The notes under the pieces: generated by a model | What the model saw: only the letters and a program-made list of their open reading frames with translations | Told to the model about the DNA's origin: nothing | Database searches by the model: none | Made by a program: the position numbers and the translations under genes | Shown: positions 534-17,536 of the stretch, one piece after another | How positions within the stretch are numbered: the first letter of the stretch is position 1 | Layout of the letters: each line of letters begins with the position of its first letter | From: Bdellovibrionota bacterium | Lineage (GTDB): Bacteria > Bdellovibrionota_C > UBA2361 > JBIKUX01 | DNA: 20,423 bases | Reading direction: 5' to 3' | NCBI GenBank assembly: GCA_044347345.1 | Contig: JBIKUX010000031.1 | Location: forward strand, 1-20,423

Positions 534-2210
534 ATGACTTGGTCAATCGCTGCAGGCATCGCTGTAGTATTATTTTTAGTATTAGCTAACTTTTACTTCG
601 TTGCAGCCGAATTTGCGATGGTTCGCAGTAGGCCAACAAAATTAAAAGCGCCTGAAGAATCTGGCCGATTTGGCACTCGGTCATCCTTAAAACTCATAGA
701 CGATTTAGACTCAAGCCTTTCAGCTATTCAGCTGGGTATAACCGTAGTTAGCTTAATTTTAGGTTGGTACGGTGAGGCCATATTTGCTCAGATGTTTTTA
801 AATCTGTTCAATTTTTTTGGTCATTCTGATGAATTAGCCTGGGCCTTAATATTCTCACACGGCGCAGCCACTACTCTAGCGTTATGTGTAGTGACTTTTT
901 TACATGTTGTGATCGGTGAGTTAGCCGCAAAATCCTTAGCTATACGGTATCCCGAGGCAACACTCAGAGCACTAGCGCCTTTGATGGTATTTCTGACTAA
1001 AATTTGCCGACCCCTTATCTTCATCCTTAATGGAGCCGCAAATTTATTTCTTTCTATTTTTGGACTTCGCACAGTTGCTGAAAGTGAAAGGGTGCTAAGT
1101 TCTCACGAATTAGCAATGTTGGTGGCTCACAGTTCACAGTACGGGATGCTCGATAAAAATGAAGAAGAGATGCTTAAGGGTATCTTTACTTTTTCTGAAA
1201 CTGTAGCCAGAGAGGTAATGACTCCTCGCACTGACCTCATTACAGTTCCAATCAATGCCTCTTTTCAACAAGTAGTAACTATTGTATCCAGCTCTGGTTT
1301 TTCTAGATTTCCTGTAATCGGTACTGGCACTGATGACGTAAAGGGTCTTCTTCTGGCTCGGGATATCATTGGCGTACTTCAGCAACGCGGTATTTTATCA
1401 GCTCAAGAAAACTTTGAAGTAAAGCGTATAATGCGAAAAGCTTTTTTTGTGCCAGGAACCAAGCCCATTGACGATCTTCTTACGGAGCTACGGTCACAGA
1501 ATGTACACATGGCTGTCGTACTCGATGAGCACGGCGGTATAGACGGAGTAGTAACTCTTGAGGATATAATTGAAGAGATAGTCGGTGAAATTTTTGATGA
1601 ATCGGACCGACTCGAGCTAGACATAGTCGTGGAAGCTGACGGAGACTCTCTAGTAGACGGCGGAGTATTAGTCTCAGATTTTAATGAAAAATTATCTCTT
1701 AGTATCGCCGAGGGCGATTATGATACCATCGCTGGTTTTATATTCGCGGCGCTAGGTCGTGTGGCTATCTCAGGTGATTCCATACTAATCAACCGTAATG
1801 GCTTAGTTCTAGAAATAAATGGTATTCACATTCACCCAAATAACGTTGGGGCAAATGAAGAAGAAGAGCTAAACAGCACTGAGAATTTATCTGTTTTATC
1901 AAAACAAAAAAAGGTTAGAATCACCGTTCAAGAGGTAGAGGGTAATCGTATTCATCTCATAAGAGTACATCCGATTGAGGATAAGGAGAGTATAAATAGC
2001 GACAATACATCTATTGAGCAAGTCGAACTAAAACAAGATCCTCCCTCAAATGAAAGCTCAAATGAAGCCAACGATATGAGTGAATCAGTTAAACCTGAAC
2101 TAGATGATTTATCTGCTAGTAGCAAAGTAACTGAAGAACTACCTGAAAATTCTTCTTCCCAAGAAAACGAAATTGGAGAGCAATCTCTGAAAAAATCTCT
2201 CACTGCTTAG
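534..2210 (+). CDS. Hemolysin-family / HlyC-CorC transporter (CNNM/DUF21 TM domain, CBS pair, CorC_HlyC domain), probably Mg2+/divalent cation homeostasis
   Basis: N-terminal 'ANFYFVAAEFAMV', 'IQLGITVVSLILGW', 'HVVIGELAAKSLA'; CBS motifs 'AREVMTPRTD', 'FSRFPV', 'HMAVVLDEHGGIDGVVTLEDIIEEIVGEIFDESD'; CorC 'DYDTIAGFI'. SD-like GAAGAGGG at 516-523. Confidence 0.93.
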   Translation: MTWSIAAGIAVVLFLVLANFYFVAAEFAMVRSRPTKLKAPEESGRFGTRSSLKLIDDLDSSLSAIQLGITVVSLILGWYGEAIFAQMFLNLFNFFGHSDELAWALIFSHGAATTLALCVVTFLHVVIGELAAKSLAIRYPEATLRALAPLMVFLTKICRPLIFILNGAANLFLSIFGLRTVAESERVLSSHELAMLVAHSSQYGMLDKNEEEMLKGIFTFSETVAREVMTPRTDLITVPINASFQQVVTIVSSSGFSRFPVIGTGTDDVKGLLLARDIIGVLQQRGILSAQENFEVKRIMRKAFFVPGTKPIDDLLTELRSQNVHMAVVLDEHGGIDGVVTLEDIIEEIVGEIFDESDRLELDIVVEADGDSLVDGGVLVSDFNEKLSLSIAEGDYDTIAGFIFAALGRVAISGDSILINRNGLVLEINGIHIHPNNVGANEEEELNSTENLSVLSKQKKVRITVQEVEGNRIHLIRVHPIEDKESINSDNTSIEQVELKQDPPSNESSNEANDMSESVKPELDDLSASSKVTEELPENSSSQENEIGEQSLKKSLTA

Positions 2211-2304
2211 CGCTAGCTTTACTGCTCTCGCATCATTCTCCCTAGCTGGCTGCAACGAGTCGTTTTGTATCGTATTTTATTGCGTCGCACTACCAACTAT
2301 GAAG

Positions 2305-2331
2305 AAAACATACAAGTAGTATGATTTTTTT
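2305..2331 (+). terminator. Weak possible intrinsic terminator between convergent genes
   Basis: CATAC-aagta-GTATG hairpin (2309-2323) with an A-run on the left and a T-run on the right; the stem is short. Confidence 0.3.
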
Positions 2332-2355
2332 GAGGAGTTTTTCGCAATGAATTTT

Positions 2356-3285
2356 TTAAGCTGTAGGGGAGTCTACAGTATGCTTCCAAGCGTGATAACT
2401 ACTTCGCACTAGAGGTCCAGACTCTACATACCGAAATCCTCGTGCAAGACCTTCTTTCTCTAAGAATTTAAATTCATCTGGAGTAACATAACGTCGCACG
2501 GGAGCCTGACGCTCAGATGGACGCAAATATTGGCCAATAGTCATTATATCTACAAATGCATCTCTCAAATCATCCATAAGAGATAAAACTTCTTCTACGG
2601 ATTCGCCTAAGCCTACCATGATACCAGACTTTGTGAGGCATGATTTATCTGCCTCCTTAGCCCATCTTAGGATGGAGAGAGAACGAATGTAACCAGCACC
2701 TGGTCTCACCTTACGATATAAGCGAGGAACAGTTTCTATATTATGATTTAGTACATCTATGCCACTTGCCATAATTGTTTCGAGATCTTTTCTCGAACCT
2801 TGCAAATCCGGTATTAGTAATTCTATCCGACACTTTGGAGCATGATGTTTGATAGCTTCAACTGTTTTAACAAAGTGCCTAGCCCCATTATCAGTGTAAT
2901 CATCTCTATCTACAGATGTAATTACTGCATGAGTTAACTTGAGCTCCTTAACTGCGATACCTACCCTCTCTGGTTCAAAAGGATCAAGAGGCTGTAAGGT
3001 ATCGTTATCACCCTTCTTTACAGCACAAAAATGACATTTGCGAGTACACAAATCTCCCATTATCATGAAGGTAGCTGTATGATGCGACCAGCATTCTCCA
3101 ATATTAGGACACCTCGCCTCTTCACAAACTGTGTGGAGACTTAAATTTTTTACAATATCTTTTGTTTCGAGATAAGTTGGGGAGCCAGGTGCCTTAACCT
3201 TTAGCCAACTGGGTTTTGAAGAATTACTCCCAGCCCGTTCTGTCCCATTTACTGTTTGATTAGTTGGTGTAGTAGAGTTGTCCAT
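2356..3285 (-). CDS. lipA: Lipoyl synthase (radical SAM)
   Basis: 'KPSWLKV', auxiliary cluster motif 'CEEARCPNIGECW', radical SAM 'CTRKCHFC', 'NHNIETVPRL', C-terminal 'VRSSYHA'. Confidence 0.98.
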   Translation of the reverse strand: MDNSTTPTNQTVNGTERAGSNSSKPSWLKVKAPGSPTYLETKDIVKNLSLHTVCEEARCPNIGECWSHHTATFMIMGDLCTRKCHFCAVKKGDNDTLQPLDPFEPERVGIAVKELKLTHAVITSVDRDDYTDNGARHFVKTVEAIKHHAPKCRIELLIPDLQGSRKDLETIMASGIDVLNHNIETVPRLYRKVRPGAGYIRSLSILRWAKEADKSCLTKSGIMVGLGESVEEVLSLMDDLRDAFVDIMTIGQYLRPSERQAPVRRYVTPDEFKFLEKEGLARGFRYVESGPLVRSSYHAWKHTVDSPTA

Positions 3286-3314
3286 AGATTAAATTCTCAA
3301 TCTCAATCGATGTT

Positions 3315-4805
3315 TTACGATATGAGAAGTAATGCCGGATTCTCAAGATATCTTTTCAAAGTCTTCATAAAAGTCCCCGCAGTCACGCCATCAATAATTC
3401 TATGATCAACGGAAAGCGTTAATCGAAGAAGCTTACCTATTTTGATAGTGCCATTATCCACTACTGGTTCTTCCTTAATTGAACTAACAGCTAAAATACC
3501 TCCCTGCCCTGGATTAATTATGGCTGTGAAGCTCTCAACATCAAACATGCCCATGTTAGAAATACTAAAAGTCCCGCCAGATAGGTCAGCACCACTGGGC
3601 CGACCTGAGCGAGCCCTATCTACCAAAGCTCGTGATTCATAAACAATATCTGCTAAAGGCAGTTCATTAACGTTGTGTAATACGGGGATAAGTAAACCAC
3701 CTTCGATAGCAGTGATAATGCCGATATTTATCTGATCTGGAACAAATAACTTATCTTCTTTCATCGAGCTATTTACATCAGGTACCTCTTTTAGAGAGGA
3801 CGCTGTAGCTTTAATAACTAAATGATTAACGCTTAGTCCCTTAAATCTCTCTTGCTCTTTTAATAAAATCCTGAGTTTCTCAGCCTCATCCATACGCACC
3901 GTAGTGGTGAGATAAAAGTGTGGTGATTGCTGAACGCTCTCTTGCATGCGTCTAGCAATAGTTGCCCGCATTTTAGAAAGCTCAACAAAACGACCGCCCT
4001 GAGCTTTTTTCATACCTGAGTCAGATATACCTGAATCAAATGGTACCGTAGACTGAGCAACTACTTGCTTTACCTCACTTGTTGGATTTTCGATAACCCT
4101 ATTGCCACGAGATACATCACTAATAGTAGCAGCGTTACTGCTTCTTAGAGAGGCGGCTAACATTCCTGCCTCTGATATATTAAGACCTTCTTCTAATCTA
4201 CTGCTACTACTACTTTCCCTAACCGTCGTGCCAACCTTATCTCCATCAAAAGGTTGAGTAGGACTCTTTAAATCACGCTTAACTATCCGACCCTGCGGAC
4301 CAGTCCCTACTACCTTGGTGAGATCTATATTTTGCTCTTCCGCAAGCCTTCTGGCTAATGGAGACACCTTGACCCGCTCAGTTAATTCTTCAGAAGAATT
4401 CTTAACTGTATCTGAGTTAGTATATCCATTTAACGGGCTGTCTTTACCATTATGGTCAGGAGAACCACTATTAGGTTTATTAACAGCAGTCAAAAATTGT
4501 GTTGATTGAGCTTGATCAGACGAAGATGACCCTAAAGAAGATCCTAAAGAAGATTTTGGCTGCTCGTTCGGTTCTCCAATTACTGCAATTACATCACCCA
4601 CTCGGGCTACGTTACCGGCGGCAGTGATAATTTTTAATAAAACACCAGAGTAAAAAGCCTCAATCTCTAAGTTTGCCTTATCTGTCTCGACCTCAGCGAG
4701 AATATCCCCTCTCCGAACCGTATCTCCTTCGGAAACTCGCCACTCAACGATTTTACCGTCGTTCATCGTATCGCTTAATTGGGGCATCCGTATCTCTTCA
4801 GCCAT
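3315..4805 (-). CDS. pdhC: Dihydrolipoamide acetyltransferase (E2) of the pyruvate dehydrogenase complex, single lipoyl domain
   Basis: Lipoyl domain 'MPQLSDTM...EVETDKA', E3-binding domain 'VSPLARRLAEEQNIDL...GTGPQGRIVKRD', catalytic 'GGTFSISNMGMF' and 'DHRIIDG'; AGGA SD upstream. Pyruvate specificity is inferred from the MPxLSxTM lipoyl type. Confidence 0.9.
   Translation of the reverse strand: MAEEIRMPQLSDTMNDGKIVEWRVSEGDTVRRGDILAEVETDKANLEIEAFYSGVLLKIITAAGNVARVGDVIAVIGEPNEQPKSSLGSSLGSSSSDQAQSTQFLTAVNKPNSGSPDHNGKDSPLNGYTNSDTVKNSSEELTERVKVSPLARRLAEEQNIDLTKVVGTGPQGRIVKRDLKSPTQPFDGDKVGTTVRESSSSSRLEEGLNISEAGMLAASLRSSNAATISDVSRGNRVIENPTSEVKQVVAQSTVPFDSGISDSGMKKAQGGRFVELSKMRATIARRMQESVQQSPHFYLTTTVRMDEAEKLRILLKEQERFKGLSVNHLVIKATASSLKEVPDVNSSMKEDKLFVPDQINIGIITAIEGGLLIPVLHNVNELPLADIVYESRALVDRARSGRPSGADLSGGTFSISNMGMFDVESFTAIINPGQGGILAVSSIKEEPVVDNGTIKIGKLLRLTLSVDHRIIDGVTAGTFMKTLKRYLENPALLLIS
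4531..4554. repeat. Perfect 12-bp tandem duplication (CCTAAAGAAGAT x2) in the E2 linker, within the SSLGSSLG repeat
   Basis: Read directly at 4531-4542 and 4543-4554. Confidence 0.85.
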
Positions 4806-4816
4806 TGTAAATCCTG

Positions 4817-5482
4817 CTAAGCCTTACCTTTTCCACTTTGGTAAAGATACGTTATTTTGCGATTACTCTCAATCATATGAAATTCATTAGATCTCTGGGT
4901 TATTAGATCTCTCTGGACTAATTGAGCTATCAGCAACGATAAACTAGCCACATACCAAATAATTTTCTTTACTCCACATACTTCAATACTTCCCCAAGCG
5001 ACTAGGCGAGCAGATACCAACCCAAGGATGAGTATAAAGTTTATATAATCTAAGCTTGGAGTTTTTAAAGATACAGAAGTAGATTCTAGTAGCTTATCTA
5101 TTTCTTGACTTAAAACTTTTTTGTACCCAAAAAATAATAAACAAAAACTCACTACTAAAAGCAGGGGAAACTTATAAAGTCTAATTGTAAGCTCTAACAC
5201 AGAAATTAATCCCATTAGAACGATTGTACACTTCAAGATAAATTTAGCTCGATGCCTATCCACATCAATTTGCGGCAAGAATTTATGGTTAATAAAACTT
5301 ATCCACATCTCTCTGAAAGCACACATCACACTAATGAGAGTAGCTATTAAAATGAAAGGAGCTAAACTATCAGAGGGAACTATAAAACCGATAAATTTTA
5401 ATAAGATAATATCAAGTGCATAAGAAGCCACAAGCAGAGCAACCACACTTTGGTTATACTGAGAACGGCAACCGCTAATCAT
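4817..5482 (-). CDS. Hypothetical multi-pass membrane protein, start uncertain (TTG 5494, ATG 5482 or further downstream)
   Basis: Long ORF with several hydrophobic segments; its stop lies 11 nt before the pdhC start, suggesting an operon; no family recognised. Confidence 0.6.
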   Translation of the reverse strand: MISGCRSQYNQSVVALLVASYALDIILLKFIGFIVPSDSLAPFILIATLISVMCAFREMWISFINHKFLPQIDVDRHRAKFILKCTIVLMGLISVLELTIRLYKFPLLLVVSFCLLFFGYKKVLSQEIDKLLESTSVSLKTPSLDYINFILILGLVSARLVAWGSIEVCGVKKIIWYVASLSLLIAQLVQRDLITQRSNEFHMIESNRKITYLYQSGKGKA

Positions 5483-5493
5483 GGTGACACTCA

Positions 5494-6975
5494 ATGAATA
5501 AAACCTCTTCTTTCACTTCTCTTCACAAAGTAACTCCCATGTTAGATGCAGCTCAGCCGCCACTCTCTGTCTCTGAGCTTACTACACTCTTAAACAACAC
5601 GCTTGAACAGAAAGTAGGCATGGTTTCATTTCAAGGAGAAGTAAGCCAGATTACACGAGCTAATTCAGGGCATCTATATTTTTCAATCAAAGACCCAAAT
5701 TCAGAGCGAGGTAATCAGCTCCCAGCTGTTCTATGGAAGAACGTTGTTAATACGCTCACCTTTAAGCTTGAAGAAGGAATTGCCGTAATTTGTCGCGGAA
5801 AGCCTAACGTTTATTTAGTAAATGGACGTCTTCAAATGTTGGTGTACGAAATTATTCCAGCTGGAGATGGATTACTTAAACAAAAATTTGAAATACTAAA
5901 AAATCTACTTGCCTCAGAAGGACTTTTTACCACTGAGCGAAAACGTCCTCTCCCTTTCTTTCCTAAAGTAATTGGCGTAGTAACCTCAGCAACAGGAGCA
6001 GCGCTTCAAGATATTATCGCAAAACTTGAAGAACGAATGCCTTCTATTAAAGTTTATCTTGCAGGAGCGCGAGTCCAAGGTGAGGGAGCAGCTCAAGAAA
6101 TTGCTAGTTCTATCAAATTACTATCTCAAATAGAGGCTATAGAAGTAATAATCGTGGCTCGTGGCGGAGGCTCTTTGCAAGACCTTTGGGCTTTTAATGA
6201 AGAAGTGGTAGTGCGTGCAATATTTGCCTCAAGAGTACCAGTTGTTTCAGGTGTAGGGCATGAAGTTGACGTTACCTTAAGTGATCTTGTAGCTGATTAC
6301 CGCGCACCTACTCCAACTGCAGCAGCTGAAGTAGTCGTACCAGATGCAAAAGAACTTAGCTTAACTCTAAACTCTCTCACTAAAAGACTTTTTAGTATTG
6401 AACGTAATCTAAGCTCAGCTGAACAATCTCTTGATGAAATTTCTCTACGGGCAGAGGTAGCAATTAAAGGATACTTCTCTCTTCTTCGTGCTCATTTTAA
6501 AGTTGGGATCAGCCGTATTAATAGTCTCAAACCCTCAACCATTCTCTTATCACTTTTAGACAAAATTAACTTTTATGAAGGTAATTTAAACACCCAATTT
6601 TTGAATATATCACTACAAAATCGCGAGATACTTAATAATCTTAATAGTAAACTCAAATACTCATCTATTCCAATGAAACTCAAACTTTATAATGAGCGGC
6701 TAATTCACAGCTCTATTCGCTTAAAACAAGGTCTAGATCGCACTATGTCCAAGCATCACGAGACAATAAGTTATTTTGAACAAACTCTCTCGGCAATATC
6801 TCCTCATCGAGTTATAGAGAGAGGGTACGCTCTTATCCTCAAAAAGGGTAAGGTAGTTAGCGATGTAAACTCACTAGATAATGGAGAAGAAATTGAAGCC
6901 AAACTCTCAAACGGACAAATCACAGCAACAGTAAGTAATATTTTACCCAACCCACAGTGCCCAAAAAATTACTGA
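5494..6975 (+). CDS. xseA: Exodeoxyribonuclease VII large subunit (alternative start ATG 5539)
   Basis: 'LSVSELT', OB fold 'GEVSQ...SGHLYFSIKD', 'IGVVTSATGAALQDI', 'RGGGSLQDLWAFNEE', 'SGVGHEVDVTLSDLVADYRAPTPTAAAE', 'SPHRVIERGYA'. Confidence 0.98.
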   Translation: MNKTSSFTSLHKVTPMLDAAQPPLSVSELTTLLNNTLEQKVGMVSFQGEVSQITRANSGHLYFSIKDPNSERGNQLPAVLWKNVVNTLTFKLEEGIAVICRGKPNVYLVNGRLQMLVYEIIPAGDGLLKQKFEILKNLLASEGLFTTERKRPLPFFPKVIGVVTSATGAALQDIIAKLEERMPSIKVYLAGARVQGEGAAQEIASSIKLLSQIEAIEVIIVARGGGSLQDLWAFNEEVVVRAIFASRVPVVSGVGHEVDVTLSDLVADYRAPTPTAAAEVVVPDAKELSLTLNSLTKRLFSIERNLSSAEQSLDEISLRAEVAIKGYFSLLRAHFKVGISRINSLKPSTILLSLLDKINFYEGNLNTQFLNISLQNREILNNLNSKLKYSSIPMKLKLYNERLIHSSIRLKQGLDRTMSKHHETISYFEQTLSAISPHRVIERGYALILKKGKVVSDVNSLDNGEEIEAKLSNGQITATVSNILPNPQCPKNY

Positions 6976-7386: not shown

Positions 7387-10300
7387 TTAAAACCGAGAGC
7401 CTATCGAAAAATGTAGCCTCACTGAAGGCTCGCCCTCTTTTTGGTCGAGAGGAAACCCTAAATCTAAACCTACAGGACCAATAGGAGAAAGATATTGAAG
7501 GCCCCAACCTGCGCTTACTCGTTGGTGATCTATCTCTGCATCTAATTTACGAAGGAATACGTTACCACTATCAAGAAATAGATGAGTTGAAAATCTATTA
7601 TCCACAAGATAGCGAAGCTCAGCGGAATTGTACTGTGTCATATCGCCTCCTATTACAGCACCCATGACACCACGCGGCCCAAGAGAATTTTCACGGAATC
7701 CTCTCACTGTTCTTCTTCCACCAAGATAAAAACGTTGCGTAATTGGTACAGCTTGAGTATCAGCCCAAGTGTTAGATATTCCAAACCGACTTGTAAAGCC
7801 TAATGAAAATCGCTCAAATACTGCACTCCCGGGCAATACAGCGGAAAGTCGTGAATCAAAAGTGCCAAAGTTTGCCTCAGAACCAAGCATCTCAGAGGCA
7901 ATTTTAATTTCACTTGTAAATGCTACTCCTTCTCGAGGATCTAAGGGATTATCCCTATAATCAATAATAACCCTACCTATTAACGCACTAATTGTAACTG
8001 AATTAATATCTAACGGTGAGAGAACTGCATCCGAAGAAACATTTGTAAGCTCATCAAAGAAAACTGAATGACCAAGAAAAAACGAGATATTTTTCTCTTG
8101 ATCAGAATTAAAATACGAAAGTGCAGACAAACGGGCTAAATCGTACTCTTGGTTGAATGCAACAAGACGCTGAAATCCAAAATCATTAACCCAAGTATAA
8201 TCAGTCTGAAAAGCCTGTGGTACTGAGAAAATTAAACTTGATGTTCCACGACTTATTTCTTCAAGTCGTGGCTCATAATATAAATCAACTTTCAGAGATA
8301 ATAGTTTACCATCTGAAAAAAAGGAGCGATCCGAAGCTTCTGTAAAAAAATGTGCTCCAAGTTCTGAATTAGCTCCAGCACCCACTACAAGCGACTGTAA
8401 CGGTCGCTCTTCTACATCAAGCACAAGAGTCTCTGAATCATTATCAAGTGCTCCATCTAAGGAAGAAGTACGAATCCGACTAAATAATCCCAATCGATAT
8501 AATCGCCGAACACCTTGTCGAATATCATCAGCACTCCAAGGGGAACCTGGATGAATATCCAAGGTTTTTAATATCACGTCATTTTTAACTAACTTATTGC
8601 CCTTGATTTCAAGTTTGTTAATGGTCGCTCTCTTTCCTGGATGAACCAAAACAGTAGCATCATTATGCCCGCCTACCCCCATATCAAAAATAAGTGATAC
8701 TGATGAAGTAAAAAATCCCCTTTCCTTGAGTATATTTGCAACTCGCTCAATAAAACGATTAATCCGAGGCACAGAATAAGGAGGTTCTGGAAAAGGTATT
8801 AAAGATCCTAAAAATGGCATTCCATCCATCTTTAAATTTTTGGTAGCGGTAATCTCACCTAATTTAACTTCGTAAATAACCACAAACCGAGCTTTATTAT
8901 CTATATTTGTAGCAACAGATACATTAGCATCTCCATATCCCAAGTCGGATAAAGTGCCAAGAAGTAATGAAGTAAAGGAAACTTTAAGCTCATCTGTGAC
9001 TACGGTAGGGTTAAGATAAGGATTGAGATCAGATATCCCATGCAACTTTTTAAGATGACTTAGTAGGCGTTTTTTTCCTATAGCTTCAATTCCATATATC
9101 TTAACTAAATTGGTGCTTCTCTTAACTCCTTCATTTACCTTAATTACAAAAGTTCTTTTATATGCTCCAAAATCTGACTGATTTTCGGGCATGCCTGTAT
9201 CCAATATCTCGTCCTGCGACACCTCGTGAGTCTCTACAGAAGCCTCCTGAAACCCCTCAAGTCGATATTTTTCAAGGATACTTTCTTTCAACAAACGAAC
9301 AACATTAGAACCATAGGGTTGAAGCCTGTCTGTGCGATAAAGCGGTTCAAGAAGTATTTCATCCGAAAATTCATTATTACCCTCTATCTTAAAAGATAAG
9401 GGCATACCCTCTTCAAAGGACACTTCAATAATGGCTTTGCCGTTATCATCAAGCTGTGATTTATCGCGATAAGCTGCCTTTACTCGGGCACCAAAATACC
9501 CTTTTAATCTCAATAATCGAAGTAAACGACGCTCCAGTCTCTCACGCCTACCTTCAGTGGCATATTCATCAATTGGCAAGAATTTATCTATCTCTTTTTG
9601 AACAATGCCTATTGGTAGACTTGAAGGTATAATAATCTGCCCTATCTTATACTGACTCCCTTCATTAATCGTAAATCTTAATTTAAGACAACGAGAATCT
9701 CTCTCCTTTTTGCAGGAAGCTTTTATCTCAGCATCAAAATACCCTCGCCTACGATAATACTGAACAAGAGAACGCTCTCTAAGCGGAAGCTCATTTACAA
9801 ATATTCGTGTACTCGCATTAATTCTGAGTTCTTTTTCAATTTCCGCTTGAGTTATACTCCAATTTCCCCTTGCCTCTATAACTACCTGAGGCTCATTTGC
9901 ATCAATAATTGAAAATCGAAGATTACTTTCTACGCCAGGCTCTACCTGTCCTATTAAAGTCCTAAAACCTCCGTCAAGACTTGTATGAGAAAAAATCCTC
10001 CAGCGCAGTAAAAAATCACTTTGCGCGAATGTATCGCTAAATACTCGTGAAGCAGATAACACCACCGAATCTGTGAGTCGCTTTTCTGCAAAGACTGCCG
10101 GATCAAGTGAGCCAGTGGCAGGATTAAAGGTTGGTTCTAAAAGAATAGAATCAATGCGAGTCAGATTATATACGACATTTTCGAGAAAAAAAGTCGTATC
10201 TTTTCTTCCAATCGATACATCCAGATATTCTAACCCTAAACCCAAACTAACAGGCCCTTCACTTACTCCTCCACCTCCTGAAGCCAACATCAATAGTAAC

Positions 10301-13161
10301 TCTTGCTCGGAATATCCACGATCAGAAGAAAAGCTAATCTGGGGTGCAGATACGGAGCCATCCACCTCCAAAAATACAAGTACAGTCTCTCCTTGCCAGC
10401 TACGAAGAGTAGCTTCACTTAAGAGATCTATCGTCGGAATGGTCTTTCCTGGCTCAAAGGTCAGTGTCGCTGAGGTAATATCGAACCGACGATTACGAAG
10501 ACCAAACCATCCACCTATCGTTTCTATACGACCTGAAAATCGCGGCTCTGCTAATGTCCCCAAAACACGAAGTGCTCCACTAAGCTCAATTTGTGCCCAA
10601 TTAGTTAGTATTGAAACATTCTTGGGAGCCTTAATAGCTACATCAAGGGCAAGTGGCGGGGCTGATGCTCCCACACTCCGCTTTGCCACTTCAGTCATTG
10701 ACTGTTTAGGACGACTATCAAGTAAAAATTTCAAAATGTCTTGAAGAATAGTCCGAAGAGTGATGGTTTTTGCAAATTCAGCTGAAGCTACTTCCACCTC
10801 CCCCTGTATAACAGGCTTACTATCAGATAGCTGAGAAAACAGAAGATTTGCGTCAAAGGTTACAGATGTTTCCGGTGAGGGTGTAAAGAAAGCATCTTGT
10901 AACTTTACTCGTGCATAAGAGCTGGTAAAATCACTGAGATGTATCTCTCCATCTACTGAAATTAATCCACCATTAAACTCACCCGAAAGAGCCGAGGCTG
11001 AAATAACATCACCTTCTAGCTTTAGCGACCCTGATAAATTTGTGACATCAATTCCAGAATCGGCAAAAATAACTCCTCCATTTGCAATTTGTGCTTGCCC
11101 AGTAAGCCTGGGATTCTTAAAAGAACCAGTAACGTGGGCATTTAGTTGCATTGACCCACGCACCTCATCAGCAGAGGGGAAAAATGGAGCAAAAGCCTCA
11201 AATTTGAGCTGCCCATGCATACCAACATCGAGCCCCTTGTTAAGTTCATATTTTCCTCCTATTCGAGTAATAGCTCCAAGAGATGCAAGCTCAGTAGGTG
11301 CAAACACAAAAGTACCGTTAGTTATTGGCGTGGATTCGCGACTAACAACAGATAAAGGATGACGACACCCAAAAAATCCGGAAAAAGGGGATAAATTACC
11401 GTTACCGCGCATAGGCATAACGGGCATGAACGTATACTTTAGTCGGCCATTAATCTTAATACAGGAGTTAGTAAACTTAGATCCTACTGGCGCAAAATTA
11501 GTCAAAGATATGTCAATGCTGATAGGGTTTCTTGAGTTTGCCGCCCCCCTGAGAGGGATAAAAACTAAAGCTCGTACAGACTCTAACTTATCCTCGAGCG
11601 ATACTGACAAAACATCATTTTTCGTGGTCACAGAGAAGGGAATCTTCTCTAATCCAATATCAGGCGTAATGGATGTCATTATTCCACTTCCTGAGACATA
11701 AAACGTCTGAGTAAGAATATCGCCACTAAACTTTGCCTGCCCCGATAAACTAGCGAGAGAGGATAATGAGCCATATGCCCAATCAAGCAACTTGATATTC
11801 CCCTCCACAAGCAACCGCTTTTCTCCAAATGCTAATTGCATCCCACTTTGTAATGTTTCACTTTTTAAATCATTAAAAGCGTTTATATTGAGAGTAAGAA
11901 TATCTGAGCGAAAATTAAAATTACCTTTGATTTTTGCTGGCCCAATCCGTTGATTAAATGCACTAAGCAATGGAGAATTAACAAAAAAAGTTATCCCTTC
12001 AGACTGAAAGCTTAGTGAAATACTTGGTGATTCAACTGAAAAATTACCAAAGGAAAAATATGTGGCGTCTAATTTTATTTCACCAGAAAAACGATTAGGC
12101 TCAATAGTAACATTAGATTCAGACCGAACTTTAACAAGCGGATCTGATGAAAAAAAATCAGATAAACTTATTTTATAATCACTCTCAACGATTACGGCAT
12201 TTACTTTCGCTCCTAACTCCCTACATTGAAGCGTAGAATTTTCGGCCAACTGTACAGTAAGCCCTGAAGAGCCAGTAAAAGCATCCCCAATTAATTTAAT
12301 TTCATCAAGCGTTCCTGCAACTCTTAAAGAAGCTCCCATATTGCCTTTAAGGAGCGGCTCAAGATTAAGAAAGCTCATCGATAATCCAGCTCGAAGTAAG
12401 CCGCTTAGCGAATTTTTTCTTTCTATATCTACTCCCCCCGAGTAGTGTGCGCTAAATTGTGATTCTCCAGATAGTAATAAATTCGGCACCTCTACCAATG
12501 GTTTACCTGTCTTAAATTCGGTGCTTAATTTTCCTAAACTTACGGTTCTATTTGATTCTTTTAGATAAAGACTAACGTTTTCAGCTGATGGAATAATTGA
12601 AAAAAGACCAGTATTTTCTCTATCAACTTCTACTGTAGCATTAACTACTCGGGCAATCACCGATCCAAAATCATGCTCCAAAAATGCTGGTAAAAGACGA
12701 AGTTTATTTAAACGAACTTTAACAAAGGGTTTTGGTGTATCGGGAGGTGAATCACTTGTTAAGTGATCAATAAATTTAAAAATAGCACTTGTTGGTGCAA
12801 AAGCTTTACTCTTGGCATCTTCAAGAGTTACCTCTGAGAGATCAACAATCGGAGGGTAAATTTGACTAACGGCGAACTTGGCTCTAAGTAAGCCCACGTG
12901 AGTCTCAGGTCGTCCTTTTTGCGACAAAACTATTCTTCGAGCAACTCCATTCATTCGCAAAAGGTGAATACGAAATTCCTCGGCAGTAATTAAACATTCC
13001 CCCGCGCAAGATCTGGAAACCTCATCTTTTATAGATTGTAAAATTATGTGAGCTAAATAACCCTGCAGACTAAAATAAAAACCAAGAGATATACCAATCA
13101 ATATACCTAACAATAGTAATCTGCGAGCTGAAGACCACGGATACGTCATAACAAAATACAA
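7387..13161 (-). CDS. TamB (AsmA-like, DUF490)-Omp85 (BamA/TamA family) fusion protein (alternative start ATG 13149)
   Basis: N-terminal TM 'RRLLLLGILIGISLGFYFSL'; repeated beta-taco motifs ('LRVAGTLDEIKLIG','AHVTGSFKNPRLTG','LRVLGTLAEPRFSG'); DUF490 end 'EVDGSVSAPQISFSSDRGYSEQELLLMLASG'; POTRA helices (YYRRRGYF etc.); barrel motifs 'DYRDNPLDPREG', 'RFYLGGRRTVRGF', 'SPIGPVGLDLGFPL', C-terminal 'HFSIGSRF'. Confidence 0.9.
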   Translation of the reverse strand: MYFVMTYPWSSARRLLLLGILIGISLGFYFSLQGYLAHIILQSIKDEVSRSCAGECLITAEEFRIHLLRMNGVARRIVLSQKGRPETHVGLLRAKFAVSQIYPPIVDLSEVTLEDAKSKAFAPTSAIFKFIDHLTSDSPPDTPKPFVKVRLNKLRLLPAFLEHDFGSVIARVVNATVEVDRENTGLFSIIPSAENVSLYLKESNRTVSLGKLSTEFKTGKPLVEVPNLLLSGESQFSAHYSGGVDIERKNSLSGLLRAGLSMSFLNLEPLLKGNMGASLRVAGTLDEIKLIGDAFTGSSGLTVQLAENSTLQCRELGAKVNAVIVESDYKISLSDFFSSDPLVKVRSESNVTIEPNRFSGEIKLDATYFSFGNFSVESPSISLSFQSEGITFFVNSPLLSAFNQRIGPAKIKGNFNFRSDILTLNINAFNDLKSETLQSGMQLAFGEKRLLVEGNIKLLDWAYGSLSSLASLSGQAKFSGDILTQTFYVSGSGIMTSITPDIGLEKIPFSVTTKNDVLSVSLEDKLESVRALVFIPLRGAANSRNPISIDISLTNFAPVGSKFTNSCIKINGRLKYTFMPVMPMRGNGNLSPFSGFFGCRHPLSVVSRESTPITNGTFVFAPTELASLGAITRIGGKYELNKGLDVGMHGQLKFEAFAPFFPSADEVRGSMQLNAHVTGSFKNPRLTGQAQIANGGVIFADSGIDVTNLSGSLKLEGDVISASALSGEFNGGLISVDGEIHLSDFTSSYARVKLQDAFFTPSPETSVTFDANLLFSQLSDSKPVIQGEVEVASAEFAKTITLRTILQDILKFLLDSRPKQSMTEVAKRSVGASAPPLALDVAIKAPKNVSILTNWAQIELSGALRVLGTLAEPRFSGRIETIGGWFGLRNRRFDITSATLTFEPGKTIPTIDLLSEATLRSWQGETVLVFLEVDGSVSAPQISFSSDRGYSEQELLLMLASGGGGVSEGPVSLGLGLEYLDVSIGRKDTTFFLENVVYNLTRIDSILLEPTFNPATGSLDPAVFAEKRLTDSVVLSASRVFSDTFAQSDFLLRWRIFSHTSLDGGFRTLIGQVEPGVESNLRFSIIDANEPQVVIEARGNWSITQAEIEKELRINASTRIFVNELPLRERSLVQYYRRRGYFDAEIKASCKKERDSRCLKLRFTINEGSQYKIGQIIIPSSLPIGIVQKEIDKFLPIDEYATEGRRERLERRLLRLLRLKGYFGARVKAAYRDKSQLDDNGKAIIEVSFEEGMPLSFKIEGNNEFSDEILLEPLYRTDRLQPYGSNVVRLLKESILEKYRLEGFQEASVETHEVSQDEILDTGMPENQSDFGAYKRTFVIKVNEGVKRSTNLVKIYGIEAIGKKRLLSHLKKLHGISDLNPYLNPTVVTDELKVSFTSLLLGTLSDLGYGDANVSVATNIDNKARFVVIYEVKLGEITATKNLKMDGMPFLGSLIPFPEPPYSVPRINRFIERVANILKERGFFTSSVSLIFDMGVGGHNDATVLVHPGKRATINKLEIKGNKLVKNDVILKTLDIHPGSPWSADDIRQGVRRLYRLGLFSRIRTSSLDGALDNDSETLVLDVEERPLQSLVVGAGANSELGAHFFTEASDRSFFSDGKLLSLKVDLYYEPRLEEISRGTSSLIFSVPQAFQTDYTWVNDFGFQRLVAFNQEYDLARLSALSYFNSDQEKNISFFLGHSVFFDELTNVSSDAVLSPLDINSVTISALIGRVIIDYRDNPLDPREGVAFTSEIKIASEMLGSEANFGTFDSRLSAVLPGSAVFERFSLGFTSRFGISNTWADTQAVPITQRFYLGGRRTVRGFRENSLGPRGVMGAVIGGDMTQYNSAELRYLVDNRFSTHLFLDSGNVFLRKLDAEIDHQRVSAGWGLQYLSPIGPVGLDLGFPLDQKEGEPSVRLHFSIGSRF

Positions 13162-13353
13162 TCAGCAATAAATAAAACCGACAATACTTTTTGTAATTAC
13201 TCCAATAACAATGTTTTTATTCATAAAGGACTCCCGAATTATCTTTTAACTAGATACTATAGGGTCAGAAGGGTAAGTTGACCAAGCTACTCTTAGTAGA
13301 TTGCTACCAATGCTTGTAAAATCGGTGGCACTAACTCGCGAGAGAAAATTTTC

Positions 13354-14559: not shown

Positions 14560-15021
14560 TCAGCATCCTGAAGACGGTAAGTCACTTATATATAATTCTG
14601 AGCCGTCGCCATACCGTTCCCATAAAATGACCCTTTTACCTTCACAAGAGTTTGCCATTATGGAATGGATAGTACACCCGGCGTAATTACAATTTGGATT
14701 ATTACTGAAGGTGAGCTCCACCTTTGGTGGCAATCTAAATCCTGGTAGTAATCTAGAGGTAACAGAATCGAATGGTTTATCTGAATCCTTTAGAACGACA
14801 AAATGTGGTAGAGTCTGTTGTAGTGATAACTCAGTTAAGGAAGCTGCGAGTGCCAAACGACTTTCCTTGACAGCTTGCTCAGCTACTTTATGAAAGGATT
14901 TTCGTTGTAATATTAAGAATGAAGTAACTAAAATGACTGCTAGTAATATGATAAATCCAAGAATAGAAATTAGATGAGTGACAATTCCACCGTTGGAATT
15001 TTTATAAATATAAGCAGCCAT
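14560..15021 (-). CDS. Type IV pilin-like protein with a degenerate prepilin peptidase motif
   Basis: Short leader ending NSNG, a hydrophobic helix, then an amphipathic helix that aligns without gaps to deltaproteobacterial PilA alpha1 (L6, I13, L16, A17, I19, F24, K30, A36, A46, L47); four Cys in the C-terminal half. Confidence 0.6.
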   Translation of the reverse strand: MAAYIYKNSNGGIVTHLISILGFIILLAVILVTSFLILQRKSFHKVAEQAVKESRLALAASLTELSLQQTLPHFVVLKDSDKPFDSVTSRLLPGFRLPPKVELTFSNNPNCNYAGCTIHSIMANSCEGKRVILWERYGDGSELYISDLPSSGC

Positions 15022-15256: not shown

Positions 15257-17536
15257 ATGTCGATGATTCCAATTTTTAACCGCTTTAATCAGACAAAAAT
15301 AAACTTACTATCTTTTTTTATCTGGGGATGTGGAGTGTGTTTTTTTTACGCGCTCATAGCTGGAGGTATTTCCTTTTGGGATGCACCGGAAGATCCCTTA
15401 AGCCACACTATACCCAGATATCATATTATCTGTTTTGCGATTGTTTTATTAGGATTAGGAATCACAAATTATTTTCTGATTGAAAATCGACAAAAAACTT
15501 TAATTAAACAAAAACGGCTATTAAAAAAGAGTTGGACAGTGCCACTCGCCGCACTACTAATAATTTTTTTTATTGGCGATTTTTTAACTCGAAAATACGT
15601 TCTATTTCCAGGACCGACTATTCGAGGAGAAATAATCCTAGGTATGATACTCAGCTGGGCTCTAACAAGAGGCTCGCCGAGCTTATACCAGATCCGTTTT
15701 TGGACAATAGGTACGGCATTACTAGCTTTTATACAGCTACTTTTACAAACAAAAGGTAAACCTATATTTACAGACGACCATGCAACTTTTTATTTACGCC
15801 TTAGCCTCTTAATAGAGCAATTTCCATCCGTTCCGTTTTTTTATCCACTCTGGAACGGTGGTATTGATGCCCGAGATTTTTTTGCTACCGGAAGTCTTGG
15901 AGTATTTTTGTTATTTGCTCCACTTTTTTATCTGATACCTCTTAATCTAATCTACACACCTATTGTCAGTAGCATTCCATTTATAATAGCACCTCTCTCT
16001 ACTTTCTGGAGTGCTAAACTTTTGGGTTACTCACAAAGAAGCGCCCTAGTATCAGCATTATTAGCACTGTCTCCTTCATTTCTCTGGCCTAAATGGTATT
16101 TAGCCTACGGAACACTGGGATTTCTTCTTTCATGCTCCTTGTTTCCGCTATGCGCCACATTTCTGCTTAGATTTGCGGATAAACGACTTACTATATCTTG
16201 GCCTGAGGCTATTATCTGTTCCCTGGTAACGTCTATTGCCCTCATGTGGTCACCAACAGGTTTAGCATTACTACCTTTACTAGCTTGGTGTGCCCTTAAA
16301 ATTCCTCAATGGTACCAATCTCGAGTGCACTTAAGTATTGTATGTTTAACTACAGCTATAACTGTACCTTGGGTATTACTATTTATTACCTCTTCCCCCA
16401 TATTTTCTTTTATATCCCAAGCTACTCAGCGCGGAAGTGCGGAAATACATGCAGAACACCAAACTCGCACATCTCCTGTTACTGTTGCTTCGATTAAGCA
16501 GAAAATAAAACGTATCATTACTCAAAATGGCAACGCCATTAATCCAATTCTCGCTGTTTGCGGAACATTAGGTTTTCTTCTTACTAATCGTAAAAATTTT
16601 TGTATTTTTTTTATCCTACCCCTTTGGCTTCTAAGCGTGGGGATATTAGGCCCATTACTTAAACCTCAGCTTGAGCTAGATCGTCTCTTACTATTTCTTG
16701 CATTACTTGGAACAGTACCAGCTGGACATTTAATTGATAAAATTTGGAGATTAAAAGCTTTACAAAAAACTCTACAATTTAAGAAAACGAATCTTACCAT
16801 TTTTATTATTACTATCATTTTAGGAGGCTTCTTCTTTTCCACACCATTTGTATTAAGCGCGATTAGCAGAAATAGATCTCTTGAGCAATCAACAACACTA
16901 GATAAAGAAGTAGAAAATCTTGCATCTGCCATTGCTAGTGGAGCACAACAGGGAAGAGGCTTATTTACTGGCTTTGTACTTCATGAATTATCTGGCGGAC
17001 ATTTGGCTCCTCTTACTCTCCTATCTGGTACACCGTTAATTGCCCATAGTTGGGCGCATAATATGTGGCGATATAATGATGTAATACCGGACTCCTTTCA
17101 ATTAGAGGGCATTAAAGGATTAAAAGATTATTTGAATAAAATGAATGTAGGTGTTGTGATTGCACACGAAAGGAAGTGGAAATCATTATTAAAAGATAAT
17201 CCTGATGACTTTTTGCCAATCTATAAGGGACGTTGGTTTACAGCATTTAAACGAACTTCTTTTACCTCAAACTATTTTCTGGAAGGGCAAGGCGTTGTTC
17301 TTGAACAAAACACAAGTTCAGTACGAATTCGCATTGACAGCACAGATGGCATTTTAAAATTTTCCTATTTTCCATTTCTTATGCTAGAAGGATGTCAAAT
17401 TTTACCAGTGATTATACATTCTGGCACTGGTGGCACGATGATACGCTATAAAAATTGCACGAAAGGAAAAGAAACTATTCTTCGTTCGGTCGCGCCATTT
17501 AACCGTTTCATGAAAGTCCTTGGTAATTCTTTATAA
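15257..17536 (+). CDS. Polytopic membrane protein, probable GT-C superfamily / YfhO-like glycosyltransferase
   Basis: Many TM segments; acidic 'FTDDH' right after a TM helix, then 'YPLWNGG'; soluble C-terminal part with 'YLNKMNVGVVI' and 'ILKFSYFPFL' resembling YfhO-type tails. Family call is by pattern only. Confidence 0.55.
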   Translation: MSMIPIFNRFNQTKINLLSFFIWGCGVCFFYALIAGGISFWDAPEDPLSHTIPRYHIICFAIVLLGLGITNYFLIENRQKTLIKQKRLLKKSWTVPLAALLIIFFIGDFLTRKYVLFPGPTIRGEIILGMILSWALTRGSPSLYQIRFWTIGTALLAFIQLLLQTKGKPIFTDDHATFYLRLSLLIEQFPSVPFFYPLWNGGIDARDFFATGSLGVFLLFAPLFYLIPLNLIYTPIVSSIPFIIAPLSTFWSAKLLGYSQRSALVSALLALSPSFLWPKWYLAYGTLGFLLSCSLFPLCATFLLRFADKRLTISWPEAIICSLVTSIALMWSPTGLALLPLLAWCALKIPQWYQSRVHLSIVCLTTAITVPWVLLFITSSPIFSFISQATQRGSAEIHAEHQTRTSPVTVASIKQKIKRIITQNGNAINPILAVCGTLGFLLTNRKNFCIFFILPLWLLSVGILGPLLKPQLELDRLLLFLALLGTVPAGHLIDKIWRLKALQKTLQFKKTNLTIFIITIILGGFFFSTPFVLSAISRNRSLEQSTTLDKEVENLASAIASGAQQGRGLFTGFVLHELSGGHLAPLTLLSGTPLIAHSWAHNMWRYNDVIPDSFQLEGIKGLKDYLNKMNVGVVIAHERKWKSLLKDNPDDFLPIYKGRWFTAFKRTSFTSNYFLEGQGVVLEQNTSSVRIRIDSTDGILKFSYFPFLMLEGCQILPVIIHSGTGGTMIRYKNCTKGKETILRSVAPFNRFMKVLGNSL

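Follow-up and report, generated by a model that had tools for sequence, protein, structure and literature searches.

The window analysed here, a stretch of 20,423 nucleotides from a Bdellovibrionota bacterium (contig JBIKUX010000031.1, assembly GCA_044347345.1), contains a gene that encodes a TamB protein and an Omp85 protein in one chain. In Escherichia coli, TamA, an Omp85 protein of the outer membrane, and TamB, an AsmA-like protein of the inner membrane, are separate proteins that interact as the module for translocation and assembly (TAM); whether TamB is locked in the TamA barrel, and whether the main cargo is lipid or protein, are matters of debate. We consider it likely that the protein described here is a natural, conserved fusion of an adjacent tamB-then-omp85 pair, yielding a single-chain machine of the TAM type. 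It is probably a covalent bridge from the inner to the outer membrane and the cell's main phospholipid conduit.

Fused proteins of this kind are already present in the databases, where hundreds are annotated, and the novelty lies in their meaning rather than in their existence, as a preliminary description of this DNA had suspected. No description of a natural TamB–Omp85 fusion was found in the literature searched, which left supplements aside; Table S1 of PMC13119328 and the trees of PMC4494059 may list such proteins.

A single frame for TamB and Omp85

The preliminary description had proposed one uninterrupted open reading frame (ORF) of 1924 codons with an N-terminal anchor, a DUF490-type end, POTRA repeats and an Omp85 barrel, in that order. 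The stop-free frame was confirmed, and both Pfam and hydropathy agree with the order and positions of these parts. All coordinates are window positions, and residue numbers are counted from the TTG start.

7387..13161 (-): fused TamB–Omp85 ORF, 1924 codons from TTG at 13161, stop-free frame, stop codon at 7387-7389
13054..13128 (-): N-terminal signal-anchor, residues 12-36, from a Kyte-Doolittle scan
10987..13053 (-): TamB body, residues 37-725, presumed to have a beta-taco fold, from full-length alignment with fused relatives
9904..10986 (-): TamB DUF490 domain, residues 726-1086, from Pfam and AlphaFold secondary structure
9886..9903 (-): six-residue linker D1087-Q1092 between the last TamB strand and POTRA1, from the junction alignment and the model
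8392..9885 (-): six POTRA domains, residues 1093-1590, from beta-alpha-alpha-beta-beta units in the model
7390..8391 (-): 16-strand Omp85 barrel, residues ~1591-1924, from Pfam, the model, Foldseek and VIA-align
Tryptic peptide spanning the junction: FSIIDANEPQVVIEAR

Translation more probably starts at the ATG at 13149 (residue 5) than at the TTG at 13161, which would give a protein of 1,920 residues; the ESM Atlas record begins at that ATG. The database representative of the fused protein, P0002, has 1908 residues.

By hydropathy, residues 12-36 form the sole hydrophobic segment, the next-best 19-residue Kyte-Doolittle mean being 1.25, and an N-terminal anchor was seen in all 11 relatives checked (loci L007-L017). 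The Pfam families for TamB, POTRA and Omp85 all match the one protein. TamB (PF04357) is found at residues 726-1067 with 105.9 bits against a cut-off of 22.4, and a weak YhdP match covers residues 669-790. POTRA (PF07244) scores 95.1 bits over three stretches of the whole chain; taken unit by unit, the match begins at residue 1095, POTRAs 1, 3 and 6 lie above the cut-off, 2 and 5 are weak, and 4 gives no match. Omp85 (PF01103) matches residues 1651-1924 with 128.1 bits. The VRGF motif and the terminal Phe named in the preliminary description were both located in the translation, the former at residues 1819-1822 (7696-7707) and the latter in the C-terminal end ...SIGSRF; RGF and its neighbouring residues do not vary among the 16 sequences aligned.

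With a PF01103 barrel, POTRAs, the VRGF motif of loop 6 and a C-terminal aromatic residue, the second half of the chain has the hallmarks of the Omp85 superfamily. The first half resembles the TamB family in its C-terminal DUF490 domain and in its single N-terminal signal-anchor, hydropathy indicating no further transmembrane helix. It departs from that family at its end: the last strand, G1076-I1086, is present but does not terminate the protein as a free strand, since the chain runs on into POTRA1. Its score for the NCBIfam equivalog ATportTamB, 27.1 bits, is below the cut-off of 825.

The junction string given in the preliminary description was located at residues ~1079-1100. The junction contains neither a Met nor a signal peptide, as had been claimed; split relatives carry classic signal peptides there. 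Independent contigs, for which we used Logan contigs from lake metagenomes that carry no flag as possible sources, also cross it. One (X9 record 17) spans 9134-11000 through the junction with no differences and no indel, and another (X12 record 12) spans 9662-10119 through the junction with two substitutions, both synonymous, and again no indel; the X12 contigs in total show eight differences, five synonymous and three nonsynonymous. The window was taken from a metagenome-type assembly of 68 contigs, a circumstance that lends some credit to a sequencing or assembly error having merged two genes, or to a decaying pseudogene. Such an artefact is nevertheless exceedingly improbable: the genes are fused in 69 of 72 genomes of the same order and in 125 of the best 150 database representatives, the independent contigs are concordant without indels at the junction, the Omp85 half has no start codon or signal peptide of its own, and the barrel is the best-conserved part of the protein, with 51.5% mean pairwise identity. 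On the grounds of the same-order genomes, the independent contigs and the database representatives, an assembly artefact was rejected, in line with the earlier judgement that these are not separate genes merged by error.

Distribution and origins of the fusion

The whole-genome search covered 96 genomes of the phylum with a completeness of at least 85%, 72 of them in the same order. In the 69 fused cases, from about 20 families, the best match is one open frame across the junction, typically 1850-1960 aa long with 26-32% identity; near and distant relatives within the order are thus fused and not split, a point on which the preliminary description had made its case depend. The remaining three comprise G087 and G098, which have only barrel fragments at contig ends, and G018, which has no TamB. 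When genome contigs were scanned with the single protein, no match was obtained; a scan with the family alignment gave matches. In one same-order genome, G033, the fused gene is broken in the barrel (C82:153-839 and 863-5701, query residues ~1683-1695) and not at the junction; this break is likely a frameshift or a pseudogene.

Full-length homologs spanning the junction, which had been proposed as a check, were found with identities down to 22-35%. Residues 730-1924 were compared exhaustively with 1.84 billion representatives by phmmer, which yielded 621 matches at E≤1e-30. Among the best 150 of these representatives (50% clustering), 125 are at least 1700 aa long, nearly all aligning in a single stretch across the junction, and ordinary Omp85s of ~930-940 aa occur only at the foot of that list. 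A junction alignment of ~60 distinct fused sequences of the order displays a last TamB strand with the consensus DLxYTI/L (G1076-I1086 here), a linker of constant length (D1087-Q1092 here), and then the first strand of POTRA1. The carriers of fusions in this class are uncultured metagenome-assembled genomes labelled Bdellovibrionota, Oligoflexia, Bdellovibrionales, or, in older records, 'Deltaproteobacteria' or 'Proteobacteria'.

Split pairs from other orders of the same class suggest how the fusion came about. At 14 of the 16 loci sampled, a tamB gene (1102-1387 aa) is followed on the same strand by a directly adjoining or overlapping omp85 gene (869-1010 aa). The split TamB ends in an amphipathic strand of the ...GxxFRRxF type and a tail of ~12 residues, and the split Omp85 begins with a classic signal peptide and ~90 extra residues that the fused protein lacks. 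Their pattern, together with a Pfam run on one pair, suggests that these extra residues are a seventh POTRA. The comparison indicates that the fusion removed the TamB tail, the stop codon, the signal peptide and one POTRA. Fused genes also occur in the genomes G059 (1881 aa) and G041 (1707 aa), which belong to other orders. A further genome of another order, G047, has a split tamB/omp85 pair on its main contig (C2:706120-710582, L099) and a fused copy on a separate contig of 21.4 kb (C3; L098, also L055). The fused copy clusters with the window's order and is either mis-binned or a real second copy; the apparent coexistence was set aside because mis-binning is possible.

The preliminary description had also pointed, tentatively, to fused forms in other phyla, and this was borne out for Acidobacteriota. 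Following a lead from ESM Atlas clusters with TamB, POTRA and Omp85, we surveyed 201 sampled genomes of this phylum. In 37 of the 201, the Omp85 match is part of an open frame 1800 aa or more in length, with one unpublished genome left out and with the reservation that high-GC frames may overrun the true start. TamB, POTRA and Omp85 are present in one chain in all four frames tested by Pfam (2199, 2086, 2403 and 2287 aa), and word-indexed searches with two Acidobacteriota queries found all three precomputed Pfam families in 117 of the best 120 and in 30 of the 39 matches. These proteins are ~2000-2440 aa long, have low-complexity linkers of 30-50 residues, and bear NCBI or JGI names such as 'outer membrane protein assembly factor BamA', 'YaeT' and 'TamB domain-containing protein'. 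One candidate, the Terriglobia locus L092, was rejected as a fused form, as it holds a split omp85 (999 aa) followed by tamB (1522 aa). The P0296 cluster (90% identity) combines a 2142-aa fused protein with members of 1265 and 876 aa from one 9.1-Mb contig; judging from their lengths, which sum to 2141 aa, the two shorter members appear to be a frameshifted or re-split fusion.

Quick maximum-likelihood trees, which contain some long branches, were built for the last 480 residues (Omp85) and for the DUF490 region. Fused and split Acidobacteriota proteins together form one clade in both half-trees, with values of 99 and 100 in the Shimodaira–Hasegawa-like approximate likelihood-ratio test (SH-aLRT), and the window's class forms another. 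The fused proteins of the order are a single clade in both (SH-aLRT 94 and 99). A single origin of all fused forms was rejected by the approximately unbiased (AU) test when 28 fused rows were forced into one clade (p-AU 0.018, log-likelihood difference 54.9), whereas forcing the 23 fused rows of the class together was not rejected (p-AU 0.66). Taken across phyla and within the class, these results imply that the fusion arose at least two times, possibly more.

Predicted structure and proposed mechanism

We obtained an AlphaFold2 model for residues 730-1924 from an alignment of 48 sequences, with a mean predicted local distance difference test score (pLDDT) of 79.9 and a predicted template-modelling score of 0.68. 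Its secondary structure comprises, in order, the long strands of the taco, three short helices, six long strands (residues 1005-1086, pLDDT 62-81), a break of six residues, six POTRAs and a 16-strand barrel. The linker has a pLDDT of ~82 and packs straight into POTRA1. A phmmer search of the TamB half against the PDB gave no match. A family profile aligned with E. coli TamB (9xdc_B) at residues 925-1161 (E 2e-14) and, weakly, with its penultimate strand, 1228-1243 of 1259, from which it follows that the fused TamB part extends to the equivalent of the E. coli C-terminus. The Omp85 half matches BamA in Foldseek (E 4e-39), and VIA-align gives Z values of 25-27 to the barrels of Sam50, BamA and TamA, with TamA at ~25. 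In nine of 50 VIA-align rows, barrel-only BamA or TamA chains align from model residue 188, 189 or 281, in the TamB part, to the end of the barrel. In the model, this pattern is suggestive of a TamB strand in the barrel wall beside strand 16.

The host genome (2.53 Mb, 95.8% complete) holds four Omp85 loci. A standalone BamA, whose presence the preliminary description had left to be checked, is encoded elsewhere in it (TIGR03303, 624 bits against a cut-off of 297), so that the fused barrel can be regarded as an extra, TamA-like paralogue. The fused gene is the genome's only TamB locus, and no AsmA, YhdP, DUF748 or YdbH-like matches were found in this 95.8%-complete genome.

These observations lead to the following proposal. 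The signal-anchor would remain in the inner membrane, and the other ~1890 residues would be exported by Sec; having no signal peptide of its own, the Omp85 half would reach the periplasm only as part of the chain. The standalone BamA would then insert the C-terminal 16-strand barrel with its terminal Phe into the outer membrane, and the TamB beta-taco would span the periplasm. By homology with the hybrid barrel of E. coli TamA and TamB, the six C-terminal TamB strands are probably placed in the lateral seam of the barrel. Because only six residues part the last of these strands from POTRA1, both ends of the POTRA array would be pinned at the seam, and geometry suggests that the six POTRAs form a closed ring that returns from there to barrel strand 1. 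We infer that the chain stays uncleaved and closes on its own barrel. Its main job would probably be to carry phospholipids along the TamB groove from the inner to the outer membrane, as the search of the genome yielded no other AsmA-like protein; it may also help to assemble outer-membrane proteins. The complete picture, namely one chain in both membranes with a permanent, self-closed hybrid barrel and a six-POTRA ring, acting as the cell's only phospholipid bridge and evolved at least two times (in this Bdellovibrionota-labelled class and in Acidobacteriota), is offered tentatively, and we think it nearly as apt to be right as wrong.

Several observations weigh against this proposal. The VIA-align ranges give first and last aligned residues only, and seven other barrel-only rows begin at model residues 858-861. 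The N-terminal 729 residues lie outside the model. The Omp85 half stays below the equivalog cut-offs of both ATportTamA (101.3 bits against 625) and BamA (TIGR03303, 240.2 bits against 297.15). The clade of 28 rows used in the AU test was named after the trees had been inspected. The only RNA trace, a freshwater metatranscriptome contig of 155 nt that matches 10339-10493 in the TamB part exactly, hints weakly at expression but is no proof of transcription. Finally, no PF04357 matches were found in G018, of the same order, or in G055, of the same class, both ~92% complete, and TamB may therefore be dispensable in this group.

Two other arrangements of the same chain deserve consideration. One precursor might serve only to export the Omp85 part, with a periplasmic protease cutting near the junction to leave an ordinary two-subunit complex of TamB and Omp85. 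No second signal peptide would then be needed for export, the 30-50-residue low-complexity linkers of the Acidobacteriota proteins could be cut, and the P0296 cluster with its 1265-aa and 876-aa members would fit. Those two members may, however, reflect a frameshift in a single assembly, no known motif for cleavage was seen, and in the window's order the linker is only six residues long, fixed in length, modelled with a pLDDT of ~82 and packed into POTRA1, which leaves little room for a protease site. We regard cleavage as improbable. Slightly less so, yet still unlikely, is a linear topology in which the TamB strands remain outside the barrel and the POTRAs extend the bridge, making the protein a BamA-like insertase that is tethered to the inner membrane to assemble outer-membrane proteins and not to transfer lipids; its insertase role would be the main one. 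It agrees with BamA being the best-scoring NCBIfam family for the Omp85 half (240 bits, against 101 for TamA), with a POTRA number of six or seven, exceeding the three of TamA, and with the first description of TAM as a protein-assembly module, as related in the text available of PMC11014939. What speaks against it is that the amphipathic terminal TamB strands have been kept and that the six long strands of the model resemble the membrane-embedded ones of E. coli TamB; moreover, POTRAs offer no lipid groove, yet the fused protein is the only AsmA-like protein found, and the genome already has a full BamA.

Natural fusions amount to a tethering experiment performed by evolution itself, in which the parts cannot dissociate, the stoichiometry is fixed at 1:1, and the C-terminus of TamB has to lie in the periplasm, no more than six residues away from POTRA1. 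If the self-closed bridge proposed above is correct, they would provide natural evidence for the TAM hybrid barrel being a working state that is stable and does not dissociate, and not a transient assembly intermediate. The fused chain would be a rare example of a single chain with an anchor in each membrane, and it would give structural biologists a complex that survives extraction intact. As it may be the genome's only AsmA-like lipid bridge, its function should be easy to isolate genetically, given a cultured relative or a heterologous test.

Genomic surroundings and comparison with known systems

The fused gene stands alone in the window: xseB and xseA lie convergently downstream, and a response-regulator gene and rpiA lie divergently upstream. 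No adjoining TPR-gene partner of the kind found in Bdellovibrio is present in the window, and scans for promoters and terminators gave no more than expected from shuffled sequence. E2, xseA and orf759 show loose, non-operonic synteny. Directly upstream, a 20-codon ORF (13162-13224, -; MNKNIVIGVITKSIVGFIYC) is preceded by GGGAG and ends in a TGA that overlaps the TTG of the long frame; this ORF may encode a leader peptide or be due to chance. An ORF of 759 aa (15257-17536, +) matches no Pfam family even at E≤1. Of 86 related loci, 31 have a homologue of this ORF (31-45% identity) close to the fused gene, usually on the same strand and 2-3 kb downstream; the arrangement is altered in the window. 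Two further ORFs, 4817-5494 (-) (225 aa) and 14560-15021 (-) (153 aa), have no Pfam match above noise and no homologue in the 86 related loci. Among the other Omp85 loci of the genome is a 739-aa fusion of a patatin-like phospholipase with Omp85, of the PlpD type (G000:C22:71598-72200, L003).

With E. coli TAM (PDB 9xdc and 23sp; preprint PMC13119328), the fused protein shares a signal-anchored TamB with a C-terminal DUF490 domain and six terminal strands, an Omp85 partner with POTRAs, a 16-strand barrel and a VRGF loop, and a 1:1 stoichiometry. It differs in being one polypeptide instead of two, with TamB preceding Omp85, whereas the gene order in E. coli is tamA-tamB. There are six POTRAs here, against three in TamA and five in BamA. 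E. coli TamB has a free C-terminus; here, the chain continues after six residues into POTRA1, and its scores for the TamA and TamB equivalogs are far below the cut-offs. The same preprint gives DUF490 length classes of 1250-1700 aa for bacteria; chains of 1900-2440 aa are not among the classes named in the text available.

Closer in gene order are the pairs bd2494 (DUF490) and bd2495 (an essential Omp85 with seven POTRAs) of Bdellovibrio bacteriovorus and MXAN_5764/5763 of Myxococcus, which has the same tamB-then-omp85 arrangement, as far as the available text of Milner et al. 2014 (PMC3983030) describes them. Compared through that paper, both pairs have the order seen in the fusion and in the 14 split loci of sister orders. 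They consist of two genes that share an operon with a TPR gene, whereas the gene described here is fused, encodes one POTRA fewer and has no adjoining TPR gene.

The Acidobacteriota fusions share with the fused protein the same order of domains in one chain. They differ in belonging to a separate clade for both halves, in a longer TamB part, and in a low-complexity linker of 30-50 residues instead of six.

Bacteroidota reportedly possess a TamL-TamB pair, in which TamB works with an Omp85 other than the canonical TamA. In Borrelia, according to the portion of PMC5582053 available, TamB (BB0794) works with the cell's only BamA. Both pairs resemble the fused protein in that TamB is partnered by an Omp85 other than canonical TamA; in these pairs, however, the partners are separate proteins, whereas here a dedicated, extra Omp85 is covalently attached to TamB.

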